This document shows positions 5,991-22,535 of a DNA stretch of 24,000 nucleotides, piece after piece. The translations under genes and the position numbers were made by a program. Numbering within the stretch: position 1 is the first letter of the stretch; each line of letters opens with the position of its first letter. Source of the DNA: Enterococcus sp. AZ128 (GTDB lineage Bacteria; Bacillota; Bacilli; Lactobacillales; Enterococcaceae); the NCBI RefSeq assembly GCF_051714485.1, contig NZ_JBIORZ010000002.1:986293-1010292 (forward strand), given 5' to 3'. The notes under the pieces were generated by a model. The model was not told where the DNA came from. It saw nothing but the letters and a program-made list of their open reading frames with translations, and did not search any database.

Positions 5991-6734
5991 TTAGGCTTCA
6001 GTTGGTTGTTTTTGATGTTCGCTGACAAAAGCCTTCGCTTCCTTATTGATCGTCTTCAAATCAACGCCTTGCTGCTTCGCCGCAAAAACACAGCCACAGT
6101 AGCATTGGCGGTAGACATCATACTCTTTACACATCTCGATTGACCGTTGATAACCGGAGTTCTTCTTAAAATCACTCGGTAAATAATGAGTATTATAAAT
6201 TTTTTGGATATCCATACCAATTTGATTGATCAATTGACTATTTTTTTTCGGGGAAATCGTCAAGGCGCTGCCGAAATAATCGTAGCCCCGGTCCAACGCT
6301 TCCTTCGCTGCTAAATCCAACCGCATATTGAAGCAAGCGGTACAGCGTTTGCCGCCTTCCGGTTCTTCCGTCAGATTTTTTTGCTGCATCACTTGGATGA
6401 ATTCGTTTGGTTTGTAATCATCAATGATCAGATCCACATGATTGTCAGTCGCGGCGTTAAAGTCATTGATAAATTTTTCCTGAACCAAAACCCGCCGTTG
6501 GTACTCACTTTCAGGATGAATATTGGAATTAGAGAAGAAGATCGTGATATCCGCATGCTGAGTCAAAAATTCCAATGTGTATGTACTGCACGGCGCACAG
6601 CAGGAATGAATCAGAATTCTAGGGCGTACGTCCGCTTTTTCCCATGATTGAATCATCTTATGGAGGACACGATCATAATTTATTTTTTGGTTGCTCATCT
6701 TTTCAACGATTTCCGTTGCATCAATAGTATTCAT
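5991..6734 (-). CDS. queH: epoxyqueuosine reductase QueH (DUF208 family)
   Basis: Cys motifs HSCCAPCS, GGKRCTACF and YRQCYCGCVF are characteristic of QueH/DUF208. I moved the start to ATG 6734 (MNTIDATE...), which is preceded by AGGTGA. The ORF-track extension to 6866 has no RBS and runs into the promoter region. Confidence 0.85.
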   Translation of the reverse strand: MNTIDATEIVEKMSNQKINYDRVLHKMIQSWEKADVRPRILIHSCCAPCSTYTLEFLTQHADITIFFSNSNIHPESEYQRRVLVQEKFINDFNAATDNHVDLIIDDYKPNEFIQVMQQKNLTEEPEGGKRCTACFNMRLDLAAKEALDRGYDYFGSALTISPKKNSQLINQIGMDIQKIYNTHYLPSDFKKNSGYQRSIEMCKEYDVYRQCYCGCVFAAKQQGVDLKTINKEAKAFVSEHQKQPTEA

Positions 6735-6866
6735 AAAATCACCTGTTGGTATTATAAGCGAAACAGGGTCGGAAAGAAAGCTGGATAAAAAGATATTCCT
6801 ATTAAAACCGTCTGGCCTAAAACTAAAAAAAGTCTGAGAATGATTGAATTTTTTTAAATTGCGCAT

Positions 6867-6892
6867 ATAGTATATACTGTTAGGTATATACC
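6867..6892. promoter_or_regulatory. paired palindromic operator candidates (AGTATATACT 6869-6878 and GGTATATACC 6883-6892) in the divergent queH/gntR intergenic region
   Basis: Two perfect 10-bp palindromes lie 14 bp centre to centre. The reverse complement of 6867-6891 matches 10187-10211 at 23 of 25 positions. The GT-N4-AC core fits the general GntR/HutC operator pattern. Confidence 0.55.
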
Positions 6893-6978
6893 GAATGTAT
6901 TTTTAATCGGTAAAGTTGGTCTAGCCAATTTGACGAAGAATCAGTATAGTGAGGTTGAGAATACTTTCGACATCGTAG

Positions 6979-7085
6979 AAATAAATCCGTTAATAAGAAT
7001 AAGGATACCAGTTTCTCTCGCATTTTCAATGGGGTAGAGAAATGGTATACGGCAAGAAAAATAAATCCATTATTAAGAATAAGGA
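6979..7085 (+). repeat. 27-nt direct repeat pair (6979-7005 and 7059-7085, 25/27 identical) flanking a hairpin (7005-7048)
   Basis: AAATAAATCCGTTAATAAGAATAAGGA versus AAATAAATCCATTATTAAGAATAAGGA. The second copy supplies the AAGGAG RBS of the gntR gene. Between the copies, ATACCAGTTTCTC pairs with GAGAAATGGTAT (12 bp, one bulged G). Confidence 0.7.
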
Positions 7086-7091
7086 GAGAAT

Positions 7092-7823
7092 ATGGAAGAG
7101 AAAAAAACGACAAAGGCGAAATTTGATCAGGTATCTGCTGAGATCGAGAAGCGCATTCACGAAGGGATGTATGTCAGTTCGCAAAAATTGCCCTCTGAGT
7201 ATGATCTAGCTAAGGAATTTGATTGCAGCCGCCTGACGATTCGTAAAGCGATCGATGATTTGATCAATAAGAATATTTTGGTTAAGCGGCGCGGAAAAGG
7301 CAGTTATGTGATGTCGCAGCCAAAGATCCAAAGCGGGCGTTCGGGTCTACAAGGCTTTACCGAAGCGGCGAAATCGTATGGCAAAACCAGCAGTACGGAA
7401 GTCATTTCATTCCAAAAGGTTGAAGAACCATCAGAAGAAATTCTGAACGCGTTGCAGTTAGAAGCAGATCATCCAATCTATGAATTGGTTCGCCGCCGAA
7501 TTTTGGACAATGAACCAATGACGGTCGAAAAGATTTATTTATCAGAGTATTACGTTAAAGGATTGACTAAGGAAGATTTTAACGGCTCTTTATTTAAATT
7601 GCTGGAGGAAAAGACCGAGATCGCCTATTCACATCAAGAGGTCGAGGCAATCTTAGTCAAACCGGATCTTTCAAAATTATTAGACGTTCCTATGGGTGAC
7701 CCATTATTACAAGTTTATTCAGTGACCTATGCACTGGACGCGACACCGATTTTTTACGATATTTCTTATTATCGTTCGGATCGCTATGTATTCAAAACAA
7801 CCCTTACTCGTTATAACCATTAG
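7092..7823 (+). CDS. GntR-family transcriptional regulator, HutC subfamily (wHTH plus UTRA effector domain)
   Basis: N-terminal GntR wHTH (KLPSEYDLAKEFDCSRLTIRKAIDDLINKNILVKRRGKGSYV) followed by a UTRA-like C-terminal domain, 243 aa. RBS AAGGAG at 7081-7086. Confidence 0.9.
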   Translation: MEEKKTTKAKFDQVSAEIEKRIHEGMYVSSQKLPSEYDLAKEFDCSRLTIRKAIDDLINKNILVKRRGKGSYVMSQPKIQSGRSGLQGFTEAAKSYGKTSSTEVISFQKVEEPSEEILNALQLEADHPIYELVRRRILDNEPMTVEKIYLSEYYVKGLTKEDFNGSLFKLLEEKTEIAYSHQEVEAILVKPDLSKLLDVPMGDPLLQVYSVTYALDATPIFYDISYYRSDRYVFKTTLTRYNH

Positions 7824-7858
7824 AATGGTGAAACCAAACATAATAAAGGAGTCTTCTT

Positions 7859-9160
7859 ATGTCAGTTGATTTTAGAAAAGTGATTGAAGAGAGTAAAGAA
7901 CAATTTTACCAGGATCTTGATCAAGTAATGCAAGTGGAAAGTGTCAAAGGAACACCGGAGCAGCATGCGCCCTTTGGCAAAGGCCCCAAAGAAGCCTTGG
8001 AAACGGTACTGGACTTGGCTCAGAAATATGGGTTTAAAACAGCGATCGTAAATGATGCGGTCGGCTATGCCCAATGGGGAGAAGCTGAAGAATATATTGG
8101 TGTTGTCGGGCATTTAGATGTCGTCCCTGCTGGTGAAGGCTGGTCTTTTCATCCCTTCAAATTGAGTAAACAGGACCAACGTTTTTATGGACGGGGAATT
8201 TTAGACAATAAAGGACCGATTTTAGCTTGCTTATTTGGTTTAAAGCTGTTGAAAGAACTGAATCTGCCCATTCGAAAAACGATTCGAATCGTTTTTGGAA
8301 CAGATGAAGAAAATGGCAGTTCGGACATTCCAATGTATCTAAGCGATGAAAAAGCGCCTGAATTCGGCTTCACTCCAGACTGTAAATATCCAGTGGTGTA
8401 TGGTGAGCGGGGCATTGTGAATTATGATATTTTGACAGCGTTTCCCGAATCGGAACTGAACACGCTAGGAGAATTTATGGGCGATCAGGCGCGTGACCAT
8501 GTGCCCGATGAACTATCTTTAGCCATTGATGGAAAAACAATTCGTGTAATTGGAAAAAGAGCGCCTTCGAATGCGCCAGAACTTGGCGAAAATGCGATCA
8601 CCTTATTAGCTGAAAAAATCACTCAAGAGGGGCTGACTACGGGCAGCTTGGCGGATTATTTCTTATGGATCGTAAAAAGCTTAGCTAATCAGCATTATGG
8701 TGAAGGCTTAGGTATCGATTTTTCAGATGCGGATAGTGGGAAGTTAATGATCACGCCATATCAGTTAGTCAAAAAAGATGGACAGCTAGCGCTTTCTGTT
8801 GCAATTCGTTATCCAGTCTCTGTGACGGAATCAGAAGTAACCGAGGCATTAGAGAATCATCTGCCTCTCGCTAGTCAATTAAACGTTGTCCGCCGAATCA
8901 AAAGCAGCCATTTCCCGAAAGAAGATGCGAATGTTCAAAAATTGGCCAATGTTTATGAAGAAGTGACTGGTTTAGATGGGACACCTGTGACAACGACTGG
9001 GGCTACTTATGCTCGTTTTGTCCCGAATATCGTCGCATTTGGTCCATCATTTCCGGGTCAAAAAGGCATCGCTCATAATCAAGATGAATACATGGATGAA
9101 GAGGATCTGCTATTAAACATGGAAATCTATATGCGGGCCATGTTGAAATTAATTGAATAA
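7859..9160 (+). CDS. M20-family dipeptidase (Sapep/PepV-like)
   Basis: M20 metal and catalytic motifs GHLDVVP, GRGILDNKGP and GTDEENG. RBS AAAGGAG at 7845-7851. Only 35 nt separate it from gntR and there is no terminator, so it is probably co-transcribed. Confidence 0.85.
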   Translation: MSVDFRKVIEESKEQFYQDLDQVMQVESVKGTPEQHAPFGKGPKEALETVLDLAQKYGFKTAIVNDAVGYAQWGEAEEYIGVVGHLDVVPAGEGWSFHPFKLSKQDQRFYGRGILDNKGPILACLFGLKLLKELNLPIRKTIRIVFGTDEENGSSDIPMYLSDEKAPEFGFTPDCKYPVVYGERGIVNYDILTAFPESELNTLGEFMGDQARDHVPDELSLAIDGKTIRVIGKRAPSNAPELGENAITLLAEKITQEGLTTGSLADYFLWIVKSLANQHYGEGLGIDFSDADSGKLMITPYQLVKKDGQLALSVAIRYPVSVTESEVTEALENHLPLASQLNVVRRIKSSHFPKEDANVQKLANVYEEVTGLDGTPVTTTGATYARFVPNIVAFGPSFPGQKGIAHNQDEYMDEEDLLLNMEIYMRAMLKLIE

Positions 9161-9178
9161 ATGGACTTGTTGTACTAT

Positions 9179-9240
9179 AAATCGAGTCGCTGGGTAGAAA
9201 GTTGGAAAGGGTAGTCAACTTTGCCCGCGGCTCGATTTTG
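9179..9240 (+). terminator. probable terminator (long imperfect hairpin followed by T-run)
   Basis: AAATCGAGTCGC (9179-9190) pairs with GCGGCTCGATTT (9227-9238) with one G-U. Inner pairing is GAAAGTTG/CAACTTT, followed by TTTTG. Confidence 0.5.
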
Positions 9241-9292
9241 TTGAATTTACTTTGGGTTCAATTTCTATTAATACGTTTTATATTGGCCCCCC

Positions 9293-9321
9293 TTGACAAT
9301 TATTTTAGCAGGACATACAAT
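9293..9321 (+). promoter_or_regulatory. sigma-A-type promoter of the GNAT gene
   Basis: TTGACA (9293-9298), a 17-nt spacer, then TACAAT (9316-9321). Confidence 0.6.
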
Positions 9322-9375
9322 TTCACTAGTATGAGATGAATGCGTTTTCCTGAATTGGGATGTAGAAAGAGGGAT

Positions 9376-9897
9376 ATGATGAGTTTAAATGAGAGTGTTA
9401 TTTATAGAGAACCGGTCATAGACGATGCCGAGGAGATTGTCGCTTTTTACAATCGAGTCGGTGGTGAGACAACTTATTTGAGTTTTACAGAGAACGAGTA
9501 TCCGCTAGATGTGGATATGCAGAAAGAAGCCATTTTAGGTACTGAACAGCAGCCGAATTCTGTCATGATTTTGGCAGTCGCTGGAGATCAGATTGTTGGG
9601 ATTGGAACGATTAGCTCGGGGAATAAAATTAAGGCTAGACATTGCGGAGAACTAGGCATCGTTGTCACAGAAAAATACCAAGGAAAAGGGATCGGCAGTG
9701 AGTTGATCCGTTGTCTGTTAGAGTGGTCCAGAGGAAACAGAATAACTACCAAGGTTCAGCTGGATACTAGAAAAGACAACGAAATGGCAGTGGAATTGTA
9801 TAAAAAATTTGGTTTTGAAATCGAAGGGGAATTGAAGAATACTACGTTGATTGATGGCCAATATTATCATTTATATGTCATGGGCTTGATGCTGTAG
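9376..9897 (+). CDS. GNAT-family N-acetyltransferase
   Basis: Acetyl-CoA-binding motif QGKGIGSELI followed by a YKKFGFE beta-bulge region. Start moved to ATG 9376 (MMSLNES...), preceded by AAAGAGGG (9366-9373). Confidence 0.8.
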   Translation: MMSLNESVIYREPVIDDAEEIVAFYNRVGGETTYLSFTENEYPLDVDMQKEAILGTEQQPNSVMILAVAGDQIVGIGTISSGNKIKARHCGELGIVVTEKYQGKGIGSELIRCLLEWSRGNRITTKVQLDTRKDNEMAVELYKKFGFEIEGELKNTTLIDGQYYHLYVMGLML

Positions 9898-10001
9898 ACT
9901 TTTTCTTTTTTTTGTAACTAACTATAAAAAAAGCAGAGATTCATAGTTTTAGCTTTATCACTTTCAACGACGTCACTTTTTAATCAATCATTTGCGTGAA
10001 G

Positions 10002-10037
10002 AACTACACTCCTGATCTATCGGGCGTGTAGTTTTTT
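10002..10037 (+). terminator. probable rho-independent terminator after the GNAT gene
   Basis: Stem AACTACAC (10002-10009) / GTGTAGTT (10026-10033), a 16-nt loop, and a T-run to 10037. Confidence 0.55.
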
Positions 10038-10185
10038 GATTCTCTGCAATTAATTAGAAGCGATTGAAGACTATGTTTTATTTCTATTTAAAAGTGATAT
10101 TCCATTACAGTGGCGTACCGTTTTTTTATTTTATCCTTTTTTTAACTTAGAAAACGCTAAAAAAAGATAAAAAAATTTGTCATTT

Positions 10186-10218
10186 AGTATATACAAAACA
10201 GTATATACTATTTATAAT
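10186..10218 (+). promoter_or_regulatory. operon promoter with two overlapping palindromic operator candidates
   Basis: -35 TATACA (10190-10195), 17-nt spacer, -10 TATAAT (10213-10218), with an A-rich tract upstream. AGTATATACA (10186-10195) overlaps the -35 and AGTATATACT (10200-10209) sits in the spacer, with the same 14-bp spacing as at 6869/6883. Confidence 0.55.
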
Positions 10219-10234
10219 GAGGTCAGATTTTGAA

Positions 10235-10249
10235 ATGTAAACGGTAACG
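10235..10249 (+). promoter_or_regulatory. candidate cre (CcpA) site in the operon leader
   Basis: ATGTAAACGGTAACG fits the recalled consensus WTGNAANCGNWNNCW at every constrained position except the last. It lies between the -10 and the RBS AAGGGG (10251-10256). Confidence 0.4.
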
Positions 10250-10263
10250 GAAGGGGTACGACA

Positions 10264-11217
10264 ATGGTTTGGGGAGCAATTGCCACGTGGCGTATGGCAC
10301 ACGATGGTGTGGTAGAAGCATTGCGCTTATTAGAGAAAAAAGAGGGAGCCGGCGATGCCGTAGAGACCTTGATCAAGACAGTAGAGGATTATCCTTACTA
10401 TAAATCAGTGGGATTTGGCGGATTGCCGAACGCTGAAGGTATCTTAGAAATGGATGCTGCTTTTATGGATGGAGATACCTTTGAGATCGGTGCAGTCGCC
10501 GGAATCACAGATGTAAAGAACCCGATCGCTGTTGCACGACAGTTAAGCAAAGATAAATTCAATAGCTTCCGGGTAGGTGAAGGCGCCACCAAGTATTCGA
10601 TGCTGGAGGGTTTTGAGCGGAAGAGTATGCTGACAGAGCGTGCTCATAAAATCTGGGAAAAACGCTTGAAGGAAATTCAAGAGAACAATTTGAACCCTTA
10701 CGATGGTCACGATACAGTTGGAGCGATTACGCTAGATCAAATGGGCACGATGACGGCTGGAACTTCTAGCTCCGGATTGTTCATGAAAAAACCTGGTCGC
10801 GTAGGGGATTCACCTTTATCTGGTTCCGGATTTTATGTGGATAGCGAGATTGGTGGAGCAGCTGCCACTGGATTAGGGGAAGACTTGATGAAGGGCTGTT
10901 TATCCTATGAGATCGTTCGTTTGATGGGTGAAGGCGTAAAACCACAGGCAGCTTGTGACAAAGCGGTCTATGAATTTCACGATAAATTGACAGCACGTTA
11001 TGGAAAAGCAGGTGCGTTTTCACTAATTGCGATGAATACCAAAGGCGAGTGGGGAGTTGCTACGAACGTGGAATTTACCTTCAGCGTTGGCAACGATCAG
11101 GAAGATGCGCAAATATTTATCGCTAATATGGGAGCGAACCATACTACCGATATTCAACCAATCACGCAAGAATGGTTGAAGGCTTACGAAAAACGGATTA
11201 AGGCACCAATTGAATAA
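10264..11217 (+). CDS. Ntn-hydrolase of the asparaginase-2 family, glycosylasparaginase (aspartylglucosaminidase)-like, cytoplasmic
   Basis: Autoprocessing and nucleophile site YDGHD|TVGAITLD (Thr151, ACA at 10714-10716). GRVGDSPLSGSGFY and GAAATGLGEDLMK match my recollection of the AGA motifs HDT|IGM, GRVGDSP and ATGNGD. No signal peptide; the protein starts directly at the conserved ATW core. Confidence 0.75.
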   Translation: MVWGAIATWRMAHDGVVEALRLLEKKEGAGDAVETLIKTVEDYPYYKSVGFGGLPNAEGILEMDAAFMDGDTFEIGAVAGITDVKNPIAVARQLSKDKFNSFRVGEGATKYSMLEGFERKSMLTERAHKIWEKRLKEIQENNLNPYDGHDTVGAITLDQMGTMTAGTSSSGLFMKKPGRVGDSPLSGSGFYVDSEIGGAAATGLGEDLMKGCLSYEIVRLMGEGVKPQAACDKAVYEFHDKLTARYGKAGAFSLIAMNTKGEWGVATNVEFTFSVGNDQEDAQIFIANMGANHTTDIQPITQEWLKAYEKRIKAPIE

Positions 11218-11238
11218 AGATTAGGAGAGTGGAGAGTT

Positions 11239-11568
11239 ATGAAAAAAAAGGTCTATCTATTTTGTAGTCAAGGAATGTCAACGAGTATGCTAGCTCAGAA
11301 AATGCAAAATGTTGCCGACGAGCATAATTTACCAATGGAGGTAGCTGCGTATTCCCATGGTCTATTAAACCAAATTATTAATGAGAAAAAGCCAGATGTT
11401 ATTATGCTTGGCCCACAAGTTAAATATTTATATGACGATACAGTTAAAAATTTTGGTTCTTATGGAGCACCAATTCTAATGATTAACCCTGAAGACTATG
11501 GAGTAATGAATGGGGAAAAAGTGTTAAAACAGGCAATCGTTGCTTTAAAAAAGAAAAAAACTCAATAG
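11239..11568 (+). CDS. PTS EIIB component, lactose/cellobiose (chitobiose) family
   Basis: 109 aa. Phospho-Cys context VYLFCSQGMSTSMLA resembles ChbB/CelA. RBS AGGAGAGTGGAGAG lies upstream. Confidence 0.9.
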   Translation: MKKKVYLFCSQGMSTSMLAQKMQNVADEHNLPMEVAAYSHGLLNQIINEKKPDVIMLGPQVKYLYDDTVKNFGSYGAPILMINPEDYGVMNGEKVLKQAIVALKKKKTQ

Positions 11569-11593
11569 AGAGTAAATAAAAGGGGGATACAAA

Positions 11594-12937
11594 ATGTTTG
11601 ATGCATTAGAGAAAACTATGATGCCTTTAGCTGAAAAATTAGGGAAGAATAAAGTATTAGTAGCAATCAGAGATGGCTTCTTAATAACAACGCCGTTAAT
11701 AATCGTCGGATCTCTATTTTTACTATTTAGTAACTTTCCTATCCCTGGATGGGAAAATTTTTGGACAGGGATCTTAGGGAATCAGTGGAGTTCGTGGTTT
11801 AGCAATGTTTCTGGAGCTGTTTTCGATGTAGTTGGATTTTTATCGTGTTTAGGTACTGCCTATGCATACGGAAGAGAATTGGAAGTTGATCCCATTCAAT
11901 CTGCTGCGGTAGCTGTTGTAGGCTTTCTTATCTTGACTCCAATGAGAATGAATGTGGCTGGTGTCGCTGATCCTTTAGGAGCTATTGATCTGCAATATTT
12001 AGGAACAAACGGGATATTTTTAGCTTTAGTTGTTGCTATCGTTTCTGTTTTAATATATGCTTTTGTATCCAAAAGAGGTTGGACGATCAAGATGCCTGAT
12101 GGTGTACCACCAGCAGTGTCAAAATCTTTTGAAGCACTAATTCCTAGTGGCGTGGTAATGTTATTATTCTTTTTTATAAGAATTGGGTTTGAATTTACAT
12201 CATATGAAACAGTTCATAATTTCATTTTTGAAATTTTACAAACTCCATTAAAGGGTGCGGGGAATACTTTGTTTGCCCAAATTATTTACTCGTTAGCTTG
12301 TACTGTTTTCTGGTTCTTCGGAATCAATGGTCCTGCTGTGGCAAATTCCGTTTTTGCTCCGATTAGTAAAGTGTTAACAATGGAAAATTTGAATGCTTTT
12401 CAAGCAGGTAAAGAATTGCCTAATATTTTTACTGATCCATTTTCTAACTTTTTCACTAATTATGGAGGGGGAGGTAGTACCTTATCCTTGGTCATTGTGA
12501 TGGTTATTTTCTGCAAATCTGAACGGATCAAAAAGTTAGGTAAATTATCTCTTGTACCTGGTATATTTGGAATTAATGAACCAATAATTTTTGGATTACC
12601 TATTGTATTGAACCCCATCATTATTATTCCGTTCATTTTAACGCCAACGATCAACTTATTACTCTCTACTGCGGTGACGAAACTGGGTATCATTCCGTAT
12701 ACAAATGGTGTTGCTTTACCGTGGACGACCCCAATTGGATTTTCAGGATATTTATCTACGGGGAGCTTTTTAGCAGTTATTTGGCAATTTCTATTGTTGG
12801 GTTTAGGTTGTTTCATTTATTATCCATTTATTAAAACTTTAGACAAACAATACTTAAAGGAAGAAGCTGAGGCTAGTATTCGAAAGGATGAAGAAGAAGA
12901 CCTCTCTTTTGATGATTTAAATTTTGATGATTTATAG
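11594..12937 (+). CDS. PTS EIIC permease, lactose/cellobiose family, with acidic C-terminal tail
   Basis: 447 aa, polytopic. N-terminus MPLAEKLGKNKVLVAIRDGFLITTPLIIVGSLFLL is typical of CelB/ChbC-type EIIC. RBS AAGGGGGA lies upstream. Confidence 0.9.
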   Translation: MFDALEKTMMPLAEKLGKNKVLVAIRDGFLITTPLIIVGSLFLLFSNFPIPGWENFWTGILGNQWSSWFSNVSGAVFDVVGFLSCLGTAYAYGRELEVDPIQSAAVAVVGFLILTPMRMNVAGVADPLGAIDLQYLGTNGIFLALVVAIVSVLIYAFVSKRGWTIKMPDGVPPAVSKSFEALIPSGVVMLLFFFIRIGFEFTSYETVHNFIFEILQTPLKGAGNTLFAQIIYSLACTVFWFFGINGPAVANSVFAPISKVLTMENLNAFQAGKELPNIFTDPFSNFFTNYGGGGSTLSLVIVMVIFCKSERIKKLGKLSLVPGIFGINEPIIFGLPIVLNPIIIIPFILTPTINLLLSTAVTKLGIIPYTNGVALPWTTPIGFSGYLSTGSFLAVIWQFLLLGLGCFIYYPFIKTLDKQYLKEEAEASIRKDEEEDLSFDDLNFDDL

Positions 12938-12949
12938 AAAGGAAATACA

Positions 12950-13471
12950 ATGAAAATTTTAATGATATTCGATCAAATCCAAGCAGGTTTTGGTGGGAAA
13001 GAAAACGGTGATTTAGAATTAGGTGGAAAAATGATGCCGATTGGATCAGCTAATATGTTCGATAAATATTTGGCAGATGTAAATGGACAAATCATTGGTA
13101 CTTTATATTGCGGAGATGATTTTTATCTAAACAATAAAGATATGGTCACTAAAAAATTGGTCGCAATGACAAAAAAACTTTCCCCGGATGTTGTAATCTG
13201 TGGCCCAGCCTTCAATTACGAAAAATATGGATTGCTGTGTTCAGAAGTTGGTCAGGCTATAGAAAGGAAGATACAAATCCCGGTTGTTGCTGCTATGTCA
13301 GTCGAATGTACAGAGGGAATTGCTGCCAATAAAAATAATTTAACGATTGTAAAAATGCCCAAAAAAGGTGGAATTGGCTTAACAGATTCACTGAAAAAAA
13401 TCTTAGAATTAGCGTCATTAAAAGTATCGGATCAACCTATTGGCCAGTTTGTTAAAGCTAATTGTTATTAA
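12950..13471 (+). CDS. short GrdB-N-terminal-domain-like protein (glycine/sarcosine/betaine/D-proline reductase protein B family), no Sec/Cys redox motif
   Basis: 173 aa. IFDQIQAGFGGKENGD, YCGDDFY, PDVVICGPAFNYEKYGLLCS and IPVVAAM parallel my recollection of GrdB N-termini (HYINQFFAGIGGEEKAD, ICGDxYF, PDLFIAGPAFNAGRYG, IPxVTGM). Family call is from memory only. Confidence 0.55.
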   Translation: MKILMIFDQIQAGFGGKENGDLELGGKMMPIGSANMFDKYLADVNGQIIGTLYCGDDFYLNNKDMVTKKLVAMTKKLSPDVVICGPAFNYEKYGLLCSEVGQAIERKIQIPVVAAMSVECTEGIAANKNNLTIVKMPKKGGIGLTDSLKKILELASLKVSDQPIGQFVKANCY

Positions 13472-13495
13472 TTTCTGAAAAGTGAGGGATAAATA

Positions 13496-14560
13496 ATGTT
13501 TATAGATATGCCTTTATTTGATAAATTGAGTGAGATTGACAGTGTTTCTGGTGATGAAAAGGATATTTCTCTTTTGTTAAAGTCGGAATACGAAGCGTTA
13601 ACGGATACTATTATTTATGATAACTTAGGATCTATCTTTGCTGTTAAAAAAAGCAAAAAGAAAAATGCACCCCATGTGATGATTGTTGGTCACATGGACG
13701 AAGTTGGATTCATTCTAAAAAAGATTAACGAAAATGGAACAATTAGAGCCTTAGCACTTGGAGATGTAAAATCTACCAGTCTTTTAGGAACATCGGTCAG
13801 GTTAAAAACTAGAAATAATAAAACTATTAATGGTATGTTGCTCGCCTACGACAAAACCGAAAATGTTTTGGATGAATCGAAAGAAGTCATAGTTGATTTT
13901 GGATTTGAAAACAAAGAAGAAGCAATTAGGAATGATTTGAATTTTGGAGATCGCATTGCTTTTGCAAACCAAAGTGGACAGTTTCTAAATAACAGAAGGT
14001 TATTTTCTAAAAACTGGGATGGGCGATATGCTCCGCTTATGGGTATTGAAGTATTGAAAGCTATAAAAGATCATGAATTTGATTTTGACTTATACATTGG
14101 ATGTACTGTGCAGGAACAAGTGGGTTTTAGAGGAATTCAAACAGCAACGAACCTAGTTAAACCTGATTTAGGTATCGTCTTAGATACGAATAAAGCATTT
14201 GACTATCAGACAGATATCAAAGAAAAAAATGGCGAGTTAGGAAAAGGAGTTTTAATAAATTTCTATGATACAACTGTATTACCTAATCGATTATTACTAA
14301 CAACTTTAAAAAATATTTGTGAAGAGAACAATCTTCTACACCAGTATTATTATTCTATGGAAGGTTCTGATGCAGCTTGGATAAATAAGTTGAGAGTAGG
14401 AACACCTACTCTTTTCATAAATGTTCCAATCAGAAATATGAATACTCCATCTTCTATCATGGATATAAAGGATTATGGAGCAGCTAAGAGTGCTTTACTA
14501 TTATTTTTAGAATCTCTTACTGCAAAAAAAATTCAAGAGTTTAAAGAAGAAAATCGTTGA
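13496..14560 (+). CDS. M42-family peptidase paralog with degenerate metal site
   Basis: M42 motifs GHMDEVGF, NWDGR, TVQEQVGFRG, IVLDTN and EGSDAA are present. Gln replaces the second Glu of the QEEVG motif (CAA 14117-14119), and Asn replaces the C-terminal His ligand (RNMNTP versus RYMHSP; AAT 14441-14443). RBS GAGGG at 13484-13488. Confidence 0.85.
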   Translation: MFIDMPLFDKLSEIDSVSGDEKDISLLLKSEYEALTDTIIYDNLGSIFAVKKSKKKNAPHVMIVGHMDEVGFILKKINENGTIRALALGDVKSTSLLGTSVRLKTRNNKTINGMLLAYDKTENVLDESKEVIVDFGFENKEEAIRNDLNFGDRIAFANQSGQFLNNRRLFSKNWDGRYAPLMGIEVLKAIKDHEFDFDLYIGCTVQEQVGFRGIQTATNLVKPDLGIVLDTNKAFDYQTDIKEKNGELGKGVLINFYDTTVLPNRLLLTTLKNICEENNLLHQYYYSMEGSDAAWINKLRVGTPTLFINVPIRNMNTPSSIMDIKDYGAAKSALLLFLESLTAKKIQEFKEENR

Positions 14561-14571
14561 GTGGAGGTAAT

Positions 14572-15702
14572 ATGATGTCAAGCTTCAATGAAATTGATCT
14601 AGACTTATTAAAACGATTGTCTGAAGCAGATGGTATCGGTGGAAGAGAAAGGGAAGTAAGTCGAATCGTTACTTCTTATGGTAGAAAATATAGCGATGAG
14701 ATTCAATATGATAATTTGGGTTCAGTCATCTTAAAGTCTGCTGGAAAATCCAGAGTTAATACTCCTAAAATAATGCTATCAAGTCATATGGATGAAGTAG
14801 GTTTTATGGTGAGAAGTATTACAGAAGATGGCTACGTTAATCTGTTGCCAGTAGGTGGTTGGTGGGGACATGTGATGCCAGCTCAAGAAATGACTATCAC
14901 CACGGCGAATTCAGAGAAAATTATTGGTGTAATTGGTTCAAGAGCACCTCATGGTTTGCCAGCAGAAATAAAAGAGAAAGTTATTCAACCGATGGATATG
15001 TATTTAGATCTGGGAGTTAATTCAAGAAAATCTGTTGAAGGATTAGGCGTGTCAATTGGCGATATGATTACGCCAAACGTACTATTTAGAGAGATGAACG
15101 ATTCTAACTATCTTATGGGAAAAGCGTGGGATGATCGATGTTGTGTGGGTGTGGGTCTGGAAGTTTTAAAAAACTTGAGCGAGAGTGATTATGAAGCCGA
15201 TGTTTACTTTGCTGCCACGACTCAAGAAGAAGTAGGAATTAGAGGGGCGAGAACAGCTGTTCATACGATTAAACCAGATGTGGCGATTGCTTTAGATGTA
15301 ACTACTGCAACAGATACCCCTTTTGATAAGAAAGGGATGAAGTTAGGGGATGGAGTAGTTTTATCAGTACTAGACTCACTTACTATTGGTAATAGCGGAT
15401 TAGTTCAAATGATGGAAGAAATTGTACAAGATCTATCATTAGATGTGCGCTATGATTTTATGACTGTTGGTGGAACAGATGCTTGTAATATTCACAAGAT
15501 GATGGATGGAGTTGTTAGTATGACACTTTCTCTCCAAACAAGATACATGCACTCACCAAGATTGATTATTCATAGAGAAGATTATATACAAACAATTAAA
15601 TTGGTTACGGAATTTTGCAGAAGATTGAATTTAGAAAAATTAAACCAATTAAAAGCTTCTATCGGAATAACAAATTTTAGGGAGAACCATTATTTAGATT
15701 AA
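14572..15702 (+). CDS. M42-family metallo-aminopeptidase (all canonical ligand motifs present)
   Basis: SSHMDEVGF, AWDDR, TTQEEVGIRG, IALDVT, GGTDA and RYMHSP are all present. Start set at ATG 14572 or 14575, downstream of GGAGG (14563-14567). The ORF-track TTG at 14557 overlaps the upstream stop and is less likely. Confidence 0.85.
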   Translation: MMSSFNEIDLDLLKRLSEADGIGGREREVSRIVTSYGRKYSDEIQYDNLGSVILKSAGKSRVNTPKIMLSSHMDEVGFMVRSITEDGYVNLLPVGGWWGHVMPAQEMTITTANSEKIIGVIGSRAPHGLPAEIKEKVIQPMDMYLDLGVNSRKSVEGLGVSIGDMITPNVLFREMNDSNYLMGKAWDDRCCVGVGLEVLKNLSESDYEADVYFAATTQEEVGIRGARTAVHTIKPDVAIALDVTTATDTPFDKKGMKLGDGVVLSVLDSLTIGNSGLVQMMEEIVQDLSLDVRYDFMTVGGTDACNIHKMMDGVVSMTLSLQTRYMHSPRLIIHREDYIQTIKLVTEFCRRLNLEKLNQLKASIGITNFRENHYLD

Positions 15703-15728
15703 TTATGAGAATCTTTGAAAGGATAATT

Positions 15729-15765
15729 AAAACTGATAGATCATGATGATTTATCAGTTTTTTTA
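15729..15765 (+). terminator. rho-independent terminator ending the six-gene operon
   Basis: AAAACTGATA (15729-15738) / TATCAGTTTT (15752-15761) with a T-run to 15764. Confidence 0.7.
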
Positions 15766-15814
15766 TGCATAAAAAAATTTTGTTTTATCTGAAAAGAACC
15801 AACCGGATCACACC

Positions 15815-15823
15815 TGATATAAT
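15815..15823 (+). promoter_or_regulatory. extended -10 promoter element
   Basis: TGATATAAT (TG-N-TATAAT) lies 24 nt upstream of ATG 15847. No good -35 was seen. Confidence 0.4.
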
Positions 15824-15846
15824 AGTAATAAAAAGGGGTGTTCCTA

Positions 15847-16605
15847 ATGAAATTTCACGTATTCGGTGATGAGCAAGCACCGATCATCCTGCTGCTCCAT
15901 GGCATTCAAACACCTTGGCAGATTTGGCAAACGCAGATTGAGTACTTTCAAAAGGATTATTTGGTCATTGCCCCAGCATTGAATGGACATGAGGAAGATG
16001 CGGAAAGTGAATTTGAGAGTTTGGAAAAAGAGGTCGAAGAAATTGAAGATTACTGCCTTATTAACGGACATAAAGCTATTTTTGCGGTGTGCGGACTTTC
16101 GATGGGCGGAGTGCTGGCGTATAAATTATGGCTCAATGCAAGAATGTCCATCCAGCATCTTGTGATGGATGGGGCGCCTTTAGTGGCCAATAATAAGCTG
16201 GTACAGACAGCCATGACGAGACAATACCTGTCAATTACCCATAAAGCGCAACAGCGCGAGAGAAAGACAATGGAGAATTTTTCTAAGTTTTTTCTACCTA
16301 TAGAATACCTCGACAGTTATTTAAAAATTGCGGATAATATGAGCGACCAAACAATTAGAAATCTTGTACGGTCATTAGGAGAAAACGAGCTGGCTAGCCC
16401 CCCAGATAGGAGCGGGGAAGAGATCCTGTATTTGTATGGAACAGGAACTAATGAGCTGTTTTCAAAAAAATCAGCGAAACAACTAAGCCAGATCTATCCT
16501 GAGGCTACGATCGTCAGGCTTGATGGGTATGGACATACTCAAAAGGCCATATATGAACCGGAAGAGTGGCTTCAATTAATAGAAAAACAGATAAGGAAAA
16601 AATAA
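15847..16605 (+). CDS. alpha/beta-fold hydrolase
   Basis: Nucleophile elbow VCGLSMGGVLA (GxSxG), an N-terminal HG oxyanion motif (ILLLHGIQ) and a C-terminal GYGHT. Start moved to ATG 15847, preceded by AAGGGG. Confidence 0.75.
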   Translation: MKFHVFGDEQAPIILLLHGIQTPWQIWQTQIEYFQKDYLVIAPALNGHEEDAESEFESLEKEVEEIEDYCLINGHKAIFAVCGLSMGGVLAYKLWLNARMSIQHLVMDGAPLVANNKLVQTAMTRQYLSITHKAQQRERKTMENFSKFFLPIEYLDSYLKIADNMSDQTIRNLVRSLGENELASPPDRSGEEILYLYGTGTNELFSKKSAKQLSQIYPEATIVRLDGYGHTQKAIYEPEEWLQLIEKQIRKK

Positions 16606-16625
16606 ATTTGGAAAGCCGTGAACAG

Positions 16626-17417
16626 ATGAGTCCATTTACTATTTATAATGAAGGAAAACATGTATACCCAGTAATTATCAGTCTTCCTCACAGCGGGACA
16701 TGGATTCCAGCGGAGATGCGTAAAAGCTTGCGAAAAGAGGCAGTTTTGGCGAATACGGACTGGTTTCTGCCAGAATTATATCGTTTTTTCGCGGCGAACG
16801 GCTGCACGGTGATCGAGAATCACGTCAATCGCTATGTTATTGATCCGAACCGTGAAAGCCAGATGGCTGGTGATGATTATCAGGATACAGTTGTTTACCA
16901 ACAAAACACCTTTGGCAACTCTCTGTATAGTGAACCGTTGGCTCCGAAAAGAATCAAAGAACGTTTAGACAGCTACTATTGGCCGTATCACCAGACTCTG
17001 CAAGAATTGATCAAAGAGAAAAGAAAGCTTTTCTCAAAGGTCTATCTATTTGATTTGCATAGCTTTGCGGAGTACCCGAATGATGATCAGACTGCTCCGG
17101 CAGATTTCGTGATTGGAAACCAAGAGGATCAAACAGCTGGTTTGGATTTACGATTAGGCTTAACGCGCGCTTTAGAAGCCGCGGGCTACAGTGTTTCGAA
17201 TAATCATCCGTTTTGCGGCGGGTTTATTACGCAGCATTATGGGCAGCAAGCTGGGGTCGAAGCGTTGCAATTAGAAATTCGCTACAATCAATACATTGAT
17301 CAGCGCTCGTTTGGTGAAGAGGAATTAACGGATTATGACCCAGAATTATTCCTTTCCGCGCAGACTAAGCTGAAGAATATTTTTGAAACCTGCTTGAATG
17401 AACAACTAAATCATTGA
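16626..17417 (+). CDS. N-formylglutamate amidohydrolase (FGase) family protein
   Basis: N-terminal ISLPHSGTWIP, then YVIDPNR and FDLHSF motifs typical of the FGase family as I recall it. Start moved to ATG 16626 (MSPFTIYNEG...). Confidence 0.7.
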   Translation: MSPFTIYNEGKHVYPVIISLPHSGTWIPAEMRKSLRKEAVLANTDWFLPELYRFFAANGCTVIENHVNRYVIDPNRESQMAGDDYQDTVVYQQNTFGNSLYSEPLAPKRIKERLDSYYWPYHQTLQELIKEKRKLFSKVYLFDLHSFAEYPNDDQTAPADFVIGNQEDQTAGLDLRLGLTRALEAAGYSVSNNHPFCGGFITQHYGQQAGVEALQLEIRYNQYIDQRSFGEEELTDYDPELFLSAQTKLKNIFETCLNEQLNH

Positions 17418-17430
17418 AATACAGAAAAAA

Positions 17431-17463
17431 AGCGTTCGATCCCATGGGATCGAGCGCTTTTAG
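17431..17463. terminator. bidirectional rho-independent terminator between convergent genes
   Basis: AGCGTTCGATCCC (17431-17443) / GGGATCGAGCGCT (17446-17458) with one G-U pair. An A-run lies upstream and a T-run downstream. Confidence 0.8.
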
Positions 17464-18002
17464 TAATCATTTGGATAATGAACGACAATAAACTTCACGA
17501 GATTGTTAGTCTGATTGTCCCAGTTATGATAGATCGTTGAAAAATAATGGGCTGAATCGCCAGGATACAGCTGATACGTCTTTTCATCAATCACCAATGT
17601 CAGAATGCCTTCTAACACATACACGAATTCTTCACCTTGATGAGGATAGCTGGCTGGCAGCTCCCGTTTTTCATGAGGCATGATCTCGATCATCTTCGGG
17701 GCGATTTTTTTATCCTGAGGGGATTGGCTTAACTGTTTGTAAATCATGTTGTTTAGTTTATGGATAACCGGCTGATCGTAGCCCCGTACAATCGGTTCGA
17801 TCTCGGGTTCTTCTTCAAAAAAGTAATTGATCTTGACGTTAAATAAATCTGCGATATTTGAAAGATGTTCGACTGCGATAGTCGTGATGCCTCGTTCAAA
17901 CTGCGACAAAAAGCCTGTCGATAGGCCCGTAGCTTCTGAAAGCTGTTTGAGAGTCATTCCTCGTTCATTACGCAGGTTCTTCACTTTTTCACCAATGTTC
18001 AT
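17460..18002 (-). CDS. XRE-family transcriptional regulator with C-terminal cupin domain
   Basis: HTH_3-type N-terminus (IGEKVKNLRNERGMTLKQLSEATGLSTGFLSQFERG) and a cupin_2-like C-terminus (HQGEEFVYVLEGILTLVIDEKTYQLYPGDSAHY). RBS GAGGT lies upstream of ATG 18002. Confidence 0.85.
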   Translation of the reverse strand: MNIGEKVKNLRNERGMTLKQLSEATGLSTGFLSQFERGITTIAVEHLSNIADLFNVKINYFFEEEPEIEPIVRGYDQPVIHKLNNMIYKQLSQSPQDKKIAPKMIEIMPHEKRELPASYPHQGEEFVYVLEGILTLVIDEKTYQLYPGDSAHYFSTIYHNWDNQTNNLVKFIVVHYPNDY

Positions 18003-18269: not shown

Positions 18270-18298
18270 TTGCAAGTAAGGCGCAGGAGTCTTATAAT
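18270..18298 (+). promoter_or_regulatory. sigma-A-type promoter of the glycyl-radical operon
   Basis: TTGCAA (18270-18275), a 17-nt spacer, then TATAAT (18293-18298). The RBS GGGAGGG starts about 8 nt after the -10, implying a very short leader. Confidence 0.6.
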
Positions 18299-18318
18299 TG
18301 AAGACGGGAGGGAAGCAC

Positions 18319-19098
18319 GTGAAAAAGCCTACGATTTTTAATATTCAGAAGTTTTCGACTCATGATGGGCCGGGGATTCGTACGACGATTTTTTTCAAAG
18401 GGTGTCCCATCAGATGTGAATGGTGTCACAATCCTGAAAGCCAAGTGTTTGCACCAGAGATCATGTTAAATAAATATGGTAAAGAAGAAATGATTGGTAA
18501 AGATTATTCGATTCGCGAGCTGGTAAAGAAGATTCAAGCGGATCAAATCTTTTATGACCAGTCCGGCGGAGGTGTTACATTTTCCGGTGGTGAAGTGATG
18601 GCGCAAAACATGGACTATGTGGTGGAGCTGGCAAAAGAATGTCAACGCTTAGGGATTACAGTTGCCATTGATACTTGCGGAGTAGCGCCAACTGAAAACT
18701 ATCGGCGAATCTTGCCATATGCAGATTTATTTTTGTATGATCTAAAGTTCATAGATTCACATAATCATCAACTTTATACTGGCGCAGGCAATCAATTGGT
18801 ACTTGAAAATTTACGTTTCTTATCGGAGCATCAGGCAGAGATCAATTTACGTTTGATCTTATTGGATGAAATCAATGCGGAAGAACTAGATGCTGAAGCG
18901 ATTATTGATTGGTTAATAGAAGAGAAAATTCATGTGAGTGAAATTTCATTGTTGCCATATCATGACTTTGGTCGCGACAAGTACGAACGTTTGAACCGTA
19001 TTTGTACTCAAAATTTTAAAAAACCATCAGATGAAAAAGTAGCAGCCCTGCAAAAAGTCTACCAAGATGCAGGATACCAAGCGACGATCGGCGGATAA
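18319..19098 (+). CDS. glycyl-radical enzyme activating protein (radical SAM), short form without ferredoxin-like insert
   Basis: FSTHDGPGIRTTIFFKGCPIRCEWCHNPES (CX3CX2C) and SGGGVTFSGGE. GTG start at 18319 is preceded by GGGAGGG (18306-18312). There are six Cys in total and no CX2CX2CX3C motif. Confidence 0.9.
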   Translation: MKKPTIFNIQKFSTHDGPGIRTTIFFKGCPIRCEWCHNPESQVFAPEIMLNKYGKEEMIGKDYSIRELVKKIQADQIFYDQSGGGVTFSGGEVMAQNMDYVVELAKECQRLGITVAIDTCGVAPTENYRRILPYADLFLYDLKFIDSHNHQLYTGAGNQLVLENLRFLSEHQAEINLRLILLDEINAEELDAEAIIDWLIEEKIHVSEISLLPYHDFGRDKYERLNRICTQNFKKPSDEKVAALQKVYQDAGYQATIGG

Positions 19099-19146
19099 GT
19101 TCCATTAAAAGAATAATTGCCTAAATATACTATAGGAGGAATAAAA

Positions 19147-21836: not shown

Positions 21837-22535
21837 ATGGATGTTAAACCTAGATATGAAAAACAGAGTTTGAGCGATAAGGTTGTATTAGATGTGAAAC
21901 GTCGAATTTTGGCAGGTACGCTAAAGAGTGGAGCTCGTCTAATTGAGACAGATATCTCAAATGAGTTTACGATCAGTCGAGCTCCTGTCAGAGAAGCAAT
22001 GCGTATCCTGAATCAACAAGGCTTGATTATTTTTTCTCCTCGGAAGGGCAATCATATAATTGAGATGGGCCCAGATGAATTGCTGGAGGTTTTTGAAATT
22101 CGAACGTCGTTGGAGAGACAAAGTTTGCATAAAATTTTGCGGAAACAGCTGCTCAAGGAAGAGGATTTTCAGCAATTGACCCAAATTGCGCTTGATATGA
22201 AGGATGATGAGCGGCACTGTCAAAGTGAAGAGGAAAAAGTCTTTTTATTTAATTCACTGGACCTTGCTTTTCATAAATATCTTTGGGAATTATCTGGGAA
22301 TGTGAGAAGAACGCGAATTTTAGAAGGCCTATATTATCAATTACTGATTGTGATGAATGAGGATCTTTCTTCACATGAAACGCTAGAAAAGAAATCGGAA
22401 GAACACCTAGCATTTGTGGATGTTTTGCGCGGAAATGACCTTTCGACGGTTGTTCGCGAGTTTCACGACCATATCTACGCGTACGTTAAGGCTACCTTGC
22501 CGACAGAAGAAAAGAATTTTTACTTGGATTGCTAA
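21837..22535 (+). CDS. GntR-family transcriptional regulator, FadR subfamily (wHTH plus FCD domain)
   Basis: GntR wHTH (LIETDISNEFTISRAPVREAMRILNQQGLI) and an all-helical C-terminal domain with His/Asp positions typical of FCD (DLAFHKYL, EEHLAFV, FHDHI). RBS GGAGGGG at 21818-21824. Confidence 0.85.
   Translation: MDVKPRYEKQSLSDKVVLDVKRRILAGTLKSGARLIETDISNEFTISRAPVREAMRILNQQGLIIFSPRKGNHIIEMGPDELLEVFEIRTSLERQSLHKILRKQLLKEEDFQQLTQIALDMKDDERHCQSEEEKVFLFNSLDLAFHKYLWELSGNVRRTRILEGLYYQLLIVMNEDLSSHETLEKKSEEHLAFVDVLRGNDLSTVVREFHDHIYAYVKATLPTEEKNFYLDC

Follow-up and report, generated by a model that had tools for sequence, protein, structure and literature searches.

A predicted ega-type glycoamino-acid locus with a distinct M42-bearing transporter cassette in Enterococcus sp. 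AZ128

A 24,000-nucleotide stretch of the Enterococcus sp. AZ128 genome (contig NZ_JBIORZ010000002.1, positions 986,293 to 1,010,292; hereafter the window) carries a phosphotransferase system (PTS) operon headed by a glycosylasparaginase-like gene. Judged by sequence comparison, this is a locus of the type described as ega in Enterococcus faecalis, in which the transporter module has been replaced by a distinct and widely conserved cassette encoding the PTS component EIIC, a short GrdB-like protein and two proteins of the M42 peptidase family, M42a and M42b. It is highly probable that the locus serves the salvage of glycoamino acids of the N-acetylglucosaminyl-asparagine (GlcNAc-Asn) type. PTS uptake of GlcNAc-Asn followed by cleavage of its amide bond is already known from the ega and AsnA2 systems, and the window adds nothing to the pathway itself; the core inference rests on homology to these published systems and is thus not a discovery. 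New here are the separate EIIC clade, its M42 pair, the degeneracy of one member of that pair, and a regulator and operators common to loci with and without the cassette.

The operon and its replaced transporter module

Six open reading frames (ORFs) on the + strand, g1 to g6 (10264-15702), have a promoter with operators on one side and a strong terminator on the other. A second unit upstream encodes a regulator and a dipeptidase and has operators of its own.

6869-6892, no strand assigned: operator pair ahead of the GntR gene, palindromes AGTATATACT and GGTATATACC, 14 bp from centre to centre
7092-7823, + strand: GntR/HutC-type regulator, EgaR-like, with GntR and UTRA domains (NF041547 GntR_LSA1692, 350 bits, cut-off 275)
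7859-9160, + strand: M20 dipeptidase of the Sapep/PepV family, EgaP/PepV-like, in the transcription unit of the regulator (TIGR01887, 451 bits, cut-off 208)
10186-10195 and 10200-10209: operator pair at g1, two copies of the palindrome AGTATATAC(T), overlapping the promoter
10186-10218, + strand: sigma-70-like promoter, TATACA-17-TATAAT, with the -35 hexamer at 10190-10195 and the -10 hexamer at 10213-10218, overlapped by the two operator palindromes
10264-11217, + strand: g1, predicted cytoplasmic glycosylasparaginase, an EgaG/AsnA2-like Ntn hydrolase with the autoprocessing site HD|T151
11239-11568, + strand: g2, PTS EIIB of the lactose/cellobiose family, with a Cys within the LFCSQGMSTS loop
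11594-12937, + strand: g3, PTS EIIC of the lactose/cellobiose family, clade B
12950-13471, + strand: g4, short GrdB-like protein without selenocysteine (NF041545), with an alpha/beta Rossmann-like fold
13496-14560, + strand: g5, M42a, an M42-family paralogue with two of five metal ligands replaced
14572-15702, + strand: g6, M42b, a canonical (TET-type) M42 aminopeptidase with the full ligand set
15729-15771, + strand: intrinsic operon terminator, a 15-bp stem followed by U7

The first-pass annotation, made from the sequence alone, had described g1 to g6 as a single unit with one promoter/operator region, one terminator and gaps of 21, 25, 12, 24 and 11 nt in order. This is borne out by the ORF list, the promoter and the folding data, the terminator hairpin (15729-15764) having an energy of -16.5 kcal/mol (z = -5.4). 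The start of g6 is the ATG at 14572, which is preceded by GGAGG; the mechanical ORF list instead begins this gene at a TTG at 14557. Gene families were assigned by scoring the proteins with Pfam and NCBIfam profiles against curated cut-offs, and this profile search, which the annotation had proposed, confirmed its calls of Asparaginase_2 (g1, 3e-60), PTS_IIB (g2, 2e-16), PTS_EIIC (g3), GRDB (g4) and Peptidase_M42 (g5, 1e-63; g6, 5e-89). The annotation had also remarked on the missing partners of a lactose/cellobiose PTS. No gene for a glycoside hydrolase of family 1 or 4 (GH1/GH4), for EIIA or for sugar-phosphate catabolism was found in the 24-kb window; beyond 6000-18000 this check took in ORFs of 100 aa or longer, a lactose/cellobiose EIIA having ~105 aa.

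The EIIC passes the subfamily profile TIGR00410 (411 bits, cut-off 236) and stays below the cut-off for every cellobiose, lactose and chitobiose equivalog, the nearest being that for cellobiose (411 bits vs 434). Its nearness to the cellobiose equivalog would fit an ordinary cellobiose or chitobiose (beta-glucoside) PTS that merely lies beside housekeeping peptidases and an asparaginase to which it is functionally unrelated. This is very improbable, however, given that all of these equivalog cut-offs are missed, that the locus has no phospho-beta-glucosidase gene and that the six closely spaced genes share a single promoter and terminator. In addition, the gene combination, whose conservation the annotation had marked out for examination, is kept across dozens of species in three bacterial classes.

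This conservation was followed through a genome scan, with one genome per species and an EgaG alignment as query, in which 80 of 187 loci were kept for comparison; E. faecalis is not among them, nor among the matches listed by a homologue search that started from E. caccae EgaG. The closest matches to the glycosylasparaginase (AGA) gene are in Enterococcus hulanensis (96%) and the E. avium group. By tblastn of the window proteins onto the loci, the order GntR-M20-AGA is nearly universal, occurring in most of the 80 loci. The EIIC sequences fall into four clades, and by this clustering an EIIC gene follows the AGA gene in 57 of the 80 loci.

Clade A, 30 Enterococcus/Vagococcus loci: EIIC 50-55% identical to that of the window (one 47%); EIIB present, GrdB-like gene variable
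Lactobacillus/Pediococcus clade, 13 loci: gene order AGA-GrdB-EIIC, no EIIB
Lactococcus clade, 2 loci
Clade B, 17 loci including the window: Lactobacillales, Clostridia and Erysipelotrichales

Besides the window, clade B takes in Ca. E. murrayae (95%), E. phoeniculicola, E. canis, E. gallinarum, Vagococcus fluvialis and Lacticaseibacillus baoqingensis, and, at 61-67% EIIC identity to the window, Clostridium disporicum, Crassaminicella, Tepidanaerobacter and Erysipelotrichales. The M42a and M42b genes occur together in 15 of the 17 clade-B loci, compared with none of the 45 loci with other EIIC clades, and the GrdB-like gene is present in all 17 clade-B loci. Ca. E. murrayae is colinear with the whole arrangement of the window. 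Relative to E. hulanensis and E. malodoratus, colinearity of the DNA (~80% identity) extends to 11288, just inside the EIIB gene, and is picked up again at 16626. The break and its resumption point to two non-orthologous transport modules that occupy one chromosomal slot behind the same enzyme. A search for plasmid-borne copies of the cassette gave no relevant plasmid matches. The g4 protein has a match of 100% identity in Enterococcus sp. AZ135.

The GlcNAc-Asn pathway and its regulation

The class of g1 and its characteristic residues are seen here, while its activity is known from homologues only. The best solved-structure match is the glycosylasparaginase of Flavobacterium/Elizabethkingia (PDB 1AYY, 2GAW, 1P4K, 9GAA; 1e-54, 189 bits), ahead of isoaspartyl peptidase/asparaginase structures of the EcAIII type (2e-32, 116 bits) and of Taspase (~1e-19). 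The motifs GHD|TVGAI, RVGDSP and AAATGLGED are all present, and alignment to 1P4K/9GAA shows W9, H149-D150|T151, R179, D182 and T202-G203 of g1 to be conserved. These match Trp11, Thr152, Arg180, Asp183, Thr203 and Gly204, which we take to be the nucleophile and substrate-binding set of the Flavobacterium enzyme. The alignment opens at residue 6 of g1, opposite residue 8 of the Flavobacterium structure, which leaves no room for a signal peptide and agrees with the earlier view that the protein lacks one. In this g1 differs from the Flavobacterium enzyme, which is exported and has no PTS link, whereas g1 lies in a PTS operon. Close relatives of g1 carry the NCBI name N(4)-(beta-N-acetylglucosaminyl)-L-asparaginase.

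The first-pass annotation had preferred a glycosylasparaginase to an EcAIII-type enzyme, and the structure matches uphold this preference. It had also offered two other substrates, beta-aspartyl (isoAsp) peptides, as for EcAIII/IaaA, and glycated (Amadori) asparagine, as for the fra locus of Salmonella. In their favor, g1 belongs to the same Pfam family as the isoaspartyl peptidases, and the locus is rich in peptidases. Both are nevertheless disfavored by the scores of g1 and by the gene content, and salvage of this kind is extremely unlikely: besides its lower score against EcAIII, g1 stays at 120 bits with the beta-aspartyl-peptidase equivalog NF007589 (cut-off 567), its processing site is HD|T and not the G|T that presumably characterizes EcAIII-type enzymes, and peptides are not known as PTS substrates. 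A fra-type locus includes a FraB-type deglycase, a FraD kinase and a type II asparaginase. This type was rejected for the window, among whose ORFs neither a SIS/deglycase nor a sugar-kinase domain was found.

Digestion of N-glycoproteins by endo-beta-N-acetylglucosaminidases and proteases ends in GlcNAc-Asn as its limit product, and salvage of this compound lets gut and meat-associated lactic acid bacteria feed on host or food glycoproteins. The reference point for the window is the E. faecalis OG1RF locus OG1RF_10933-10939, which the title of the report ties to the use of GlcNAc-Asn during infection (Combret et al., Res Microbiol 2024;175:104169, PMID 37977353). According to papers that cite it, OG1RF_10933 and OG1RF_10934 encode the GntR regulator and a dipeptidase under their own promoter, and OG1RF_10935-10939 comprise EgaG, EIIB, EIIC and a pseudogene of a putative GrdB-like oxidoreductase under a second promoter. 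Citing work also names CelA1, encoded elsewhere in the genome, as the EIIA of the E. faecalis "GlcNAc-L-Asn PTS". The window shares with ega a GntR and M20 dipeptidase unit followed by genes for glycosylasparaginase, lactose/cellobiose EIIB, EIIC and a GrdB-like protein, with no EIIA in the locus, and the substrate, GlcNAc-L-Asn, is likely the same. It differs in that its GrdB-like gene is intact, in its two M42 genes and an inserted GNAT gene, and in an EIIC of another clade, ~54% identical to the M42-less modules of related enterococci (the E. faecalis proteins themselves being compared by description only). EgaR is said to be a repressor that is released by GlcNAc-Asn, and the products of EgaG are said to be aspartate and 6-P-GlcNAc-amine.

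A second reference system is the alf-2 cluster of L. casei BL23, alfR2 (GntR)-pepV (M20)-asnA2-sugK with alfHC, in which AsnA2 is a self-processing cytoplasmic glycosylasparaginase that is needed for growth on 6'-fucosyl-GlcNAc-Asn and hydrolyzes GlcNAc-Asn in vitro (Becerra et al., mBio 2020, PMC6960285). The GntR-M20-AGA triad is common to both, the casei-group orthologues (L064, in the numbering of the compared loci) being 59%, 55% and 70% identical to the window proteins, and the enzyme is cytoplasmic and self-processing in both by prediction or report. In contrast to the window, L. casei uses a major facilitator superfamily permease (AlfH), a ROK kinase and an alpha-L-fucosidase, and has no PTS, GrdB-like or M42 gene. 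A closer counterpart of the cassette is found in Latilactobacillus sakei, where asnA2 (LSA1693) adjoins LSA1692, the gene after which the equivalog matched by the window regulator is named. The L. sakei asnA2 gene is reported to be induced during meat fermentation and to be needed for full growth on meat (PMC6960285). Its locus carries the clade-B cassette, with identities to the window of 75% for EIIC, 53% for the GrdB-like protein, 52% for M42a, 66% for M42b and 69% for AGA, and its M42a shares with g5 the NMN at the His position. However, the genes run AGA-GntR-EIIC-GrdB-M42a-M42b-M20, EIIB is absent from the locus and the identity of the regulator falls to 41%. Through homology and gene order shared with the ega and AsnA2 systems, PTS import of GlcNAc-Asn followed by amide cleavage, as the annotation had put forward, is well supported.

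The regulator and the tandem GTATATAC operators are common to both locus types, those with and those without the M42 cassette. Allowing at most one mismatch, the operator motif occurs 11 times in the window, compared with 3.2 expected, and none of 100 shuffles reached 11. With the same tolerance, 41 related loci, drawn from both module types, have the GTATATAC pair at 14-bp spacing upstream of the AGA gene, and 24 have it upstream of the GntR orthologue. Close relatives have a regulator 94-95% identical to that of the window, be their PTS module E. faecalis-like (L001, L009-L011) or of the window type (L003, Ca. E. murrayae). This near-identity across clade-A and clade-B species suggests that the inducer is likely the same for both module types, in which case the clade-B module would have to deliver GlcNAc-Asn or something converted to GlcNAc-Asn. 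One regulator, operator set and enzyme are thus combined with at least two non-orthologous PTS modules, of which one is an ancient cassette with a conserved M42 pair and, in every case, a GrdB-like protein.

Several smaller features were noted around the operators and the regulator gene. In E. gallinarum, E. casseliflavus, E. mundtii, E. dispar and relatives (L044/L045, L047, L048, L050, L035, L040), three palindromes at 14-bp spacing, not two, lie upstream of the AGA gene. The operator pair at 6869-6892 sits in the divergent intergenic region between queH and the GntR gene. The QueH ORF itself (5991-6866, - strand, 291 aa) contains a QueH domain that begins only at residue 84, which suggests that the real queH start is probably an internal Met. 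The GntR leader (6975-7090) holds a direct repeat of ~26 nt (AAATAAATCCRTTA..TAAGAATAAGGA) that takes in the ribosome-binding site; it shows as overlapping blastn segments against E. malodoratus and looks like a local duplication.

Taken as a GlcNAc-Asn pathway, the locus would operate as follows. The GntR/HutC repressor would bind the predicted tandem GTATATAC operators at its own promoter and at that of g1, and the glycoamino acid would relieve the repression, as operator conservation and the regulation reported for E. faecalis suggest. EIIB and EIIC, supplied by HPr and by an EIIA of the lactose/cellobiose type from elsewhere in the genome, would import the substrate and phosphorylate its GlcNAc moiety, a step modeled on homology and on the E. 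faecalis report. Next, g1, having processed itself between Asp150 and Thr151, would cut the beta-aspartyl-glucosylamine bond to yield aspartate and GlcNAc-6-P-amine, and the latter would decay to GlcNAc-6-P and ammonia.

The M42 pair, the GrdB-like protein and the substrate of the cassette

The first-pass annotation had counted g5 and g6 as two M42 peptidases. Both are members of the family, though they are only 29% identical to each other, and g6 has the complete ligand set, with HMDEVGF, WDDR, QEEVG, LDVT and RYMHS all present and B. subtilis YsdC as its best solved-structure match (1e-88). The metal site of g5 is degenerate, however: QEQVG stands for QEEVG (Glu to Gln) and RNMNT for RYMHS (His to Asn). 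In the numbering of P. horikoshii TET2, we take M42 enzymes to bind their metals through five residues (His, Asp, Glu, Asp, His) and to have a separate catalytic Glu, so that the changes in g5 would remove the Glu and the His that presumably hold one of the two metals. With two metal ligands lost, g5 is probably not a normal metallopeptidase but a non-catalytic partner or one of altered function. This state is shared by the M42a orthologues examined in Lactobacillales and Clostridia, all of which are degenerate at these ligand positions, with exact positions and replacements that vary. The equivalent of Glu-213 is usually Q, T or K, that of His-323 is N, D, E, S or Q, and that of Asp-182 is often N, while some clostridial copies replace the catalytic Glu instead. 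The Erysipelotrichales copies of M42a retain EE and the His. M42b is canonical in 14 of the 14 cassette loci aligned and in three more checked by motif.

M42 genes inside PTS operons recall E. coli frvX, sgcX and ypdE, and g6 resembles the TET aminopeptidases (B. subtilis YsdC, 1VHE; P. horikoshii TET2, 1Y0R) as a canonical M42 enzyme. The E. coli cases differ in that their PTS are of the fructose or galactitol types, whereas that of the window is of the lactose/cellobiose type and is accompanied by a conserved M42 pair in which one metal site is degenerate. A literature search on PTS-linked M42 genes found nothing that explains their role. The cassette offers a concrete and genetically tractable setting for asking why M42 aminopeptidases sit in PTS operons, with Asn-glycopeptides as candidate substrates and with L. 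sakei, E. gallinarum and the Enterococcus of the window as candidate organisms.

A further linkage of PTS and M42 genes recurs in the genomes of E. xiangfangensis and E. hailinensis. In both, an extra EIIB-EIIC pair (L007, 881-3776; L013, 346-3225), 33-34% identical to that of the window, lies ~7 kb upstream of the ega-like locus and is accompanied by an M42 gene whose product is 31-32% identical to g6. In E. hermanniensis (L012, 1221), only the M42 match was found.

The GrdB of glycine, sarcosine and betaine reductases is a protein of ~430 aa with a selenocysteine in its C-terminal half. At 173 aa, g4 covers positions 3-164 of the 347-position Pfam GRDB model and contains no selenocysteine. 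A true GrdB selenoprotein was rejected as an identity for g4: the GrdB, GrdF and GrdH equivalogs demand 600-800 bits, and g4 attains 65-90. It belongs instead to NF041545 (GrdB_like_no_Se; 232 bits, cut-off 175), with residues 2-172 aligned to positions 1-171 of a 171-position model. The family is small, with 131 clusters at 50% identity and E <= 1e-10, only about a dozen of which are of the full-length short form, and the motifs DQxQAGxGGKE, LYCGD, CGPxFNY and MPKKGGxGL are strictly conserved in it; Cys54 and Cys84 are conserved as well. The AlphaFold model of g4 (mean confidence score, pLDDT, 95.2) has an alpha/beta Rossmann-like fold and no significant structural neighbor in the PDB, and a literature search on the GrdB-like protein found nothing explanatory.

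Genes for amide-bond hydrolases and for GlcNAc and aspartate metabolism surround the cassette in other bacteria. Most cassette loci, that of L. sakei included, have an Asparaginase_2 (AGA) gene within them or nearby, and the linkage is seen in at least six lineages: the Enterococcus/Vagococcus group, L. baoqingensis, L. sakei, Crassaminicella, Tepidanaerobacter and L091. A gene for an M20 protein of 374 aa recurs as an additional neighbor. Beside the cassette lie nagA and nagB in Crassaminicella, a fumarase and an aspartase-like lyase in C. disporicum, and MlrC, M3 and M19 peptidases in Erysipelotrichales. These neighbors favor a substrate that contains GlcNAc, Asn or Asp, and peptide bonds, and they offer circumstantial support for the glycopeptide idea of the first-pass annotation.

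Within such a scheme, the cassette may widen the substrate range of the locus to short Asn-glycopeptides. These would be trimmed to GlcNAc(-6P)-Asn for g1 by g6, possibly in a mixed TET-type oligomer with g5, together with the M20 dipeptidase, and the GrdB-like protein may act as an accessory factor. Mixed TET complexes are known in Pyrococcus, and trimming of glycopeptides by the M42 pair is a plausible proposal. A bolder form of this proposal, for which the odds are rather poor, holds that the clade-B cassette is a dedicated Firmicutes-wide machine for PTS-imported Asn-glycopeptides and not for free GlcNAc-Asn alone, in which a mixed TET-type particle of M42b and M42a would trim phosphorylated glycopeptides to GlcNAc-6P-Asn and the GrdB-like protein would carry out a C-N step such as the breakdown of glycosylamine-6-phosphate. 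If true, this would give the PTS-operon M42 genes (frvX, sgcX, ypdE) their first physiological role and the PTS its first peptide-bearing substrate.

Several observations weigh against GlcNAc-Asn salvage with glycopeptide trimming as the function of the locus. Likeness to ega rests on architecture and published descriptions, not on sequence alignment, and the EIIC of the window shares no more than 50-55% identity with its counterparts in the E. faecalis-like loci of related enterococci, so the substrate could differ. Two of the five metal ligands are missing from g5. In the cassette loci of Erysipelotrichales and C. disporicum, no AGA gene was found within the DNA stretches compared. The M20 step is called into question by the L. 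casei pepV mutant, which grows normally on the glycoamino acid (PMC6960285). The GrdB-like gene is often missing from clade-A loci, including many of the avium group, and is described as a pseudogene in E. faecalis OG1RF, and is thus dispensable for the core pathway there.

An alternative that builds on some of these points is that the clade-B cassette has a substrate of its own, another conjugate of a sugar with an amino acid or peptide that is cut by the M42 and M20 enzymes, and that it has recombined behind egaG, with g1 acting on a different compound. The EIIC is closer to the clostridial and Erysipelotrichales versions (61-67%) than to those of sister species (~54%), colinearity with E. 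hulanensis and E. malodoratus is lost between 11288 and 16626, some cassette loci show no AGA gene, and the M42 pair tracks the EIIC clade and not the AGA gene. A separate substrate is nonetheless unlikely, since the cassette and g1 lie in one operon, the operators are shared with E. faecalis-like loci and the regulator is nearly identical. Linkage of AGA with the cassette, moreover, recurs across six or more separate lineages, and nagA/nagB and aspartate-catabolic genes flank some cassette loci.

Other genes were seen repeatedly beside the cassette. A CutC-family gene lies directly downstream of Asparaginase_2 in L091 (16351-16522) and one gene (PTS EIIB) further downstream in L085 (13776-14399); having been seen in two unrelated clostridial cassette loci, CutC may be a further conserved partner of the pathway. 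In the cassettes of Clostridia and Erysipelotrichales, a gene for an RDD-family membrane protein stands directly upstream of EIIB/EIIC (L081, 5582-6181; L082; L086, 5480-6082; L087, 5882-6469; L089, 3267-3959; L091, 5709-6230) and is usually preceded by a PRD/Mga-type regulator, which there replaces the GntR repressor. In Tepidanaerobacter (L083/L084, 11087-16496), a second lactose/cellobiose-type PTS (IIA-IIC-IIB) and, linked to it, an MlrC-like peptidase gene (DUF1485 and MlrC_C) lie beside the cassette, and an MlrC-like gene also adjoins the cassette in L089 (9892-11355). This is another pairing of a PTS with a peptidase.

Neighboring genes and signals in the window

Three further features lie between the regulator unit and g1.

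9340-9897, + strand: GNAT acetyltransferase, inserted between the regulator unit and the g1 unit, with a promoter-like site of its own at 9293-9321
9998-10037, + strand: intrinsic terminator upstream of the operon (-21.1 kcal/mol, z = -5.7) followed by a U run, between the GNAT gene and the g1 promoter
10235-10248, + strand: cre-like site ATGTAAACGGTAAC, after the -10 hexamer and before the ribosome-binding site, on weak evidence

Besides the window, the GNAT gene is found only in Ca. E. murrayae (L003) and is absent from the other loci compared; it probably stands outside the system. The terminator at 9998-10037 insulates the operon from the GNAT gene upstream. The cre-like site was rejected as a real signal, being indistinguishable from chance with two matches in the window compared with 1.3 expected.

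Directly after the operon terminator, an ORF for an alpha/beta-hydrolase (15838-16605) has no counterpart in 87 loci (L001-L087). Its 3' end overlaps by 40 nt with a gene of the N-formylglutamate amidohydrolase family (16566-17417), which is conserved downstream of the ega-like locus in avium-group species. Further downstream (18298-21549), a glycyl-radical enzyme of 810 aa, with a domain like that of pyruvate formate-lyase (PFL) and a Gly_radical domain, is encoded beside a radical-SAM activase of 266 aa, and the pair is flanked by regulators of the helix-turn-helix (HTH)-cupin (17460-18002, - strand) and GntR/FCD (21837-22535) types.

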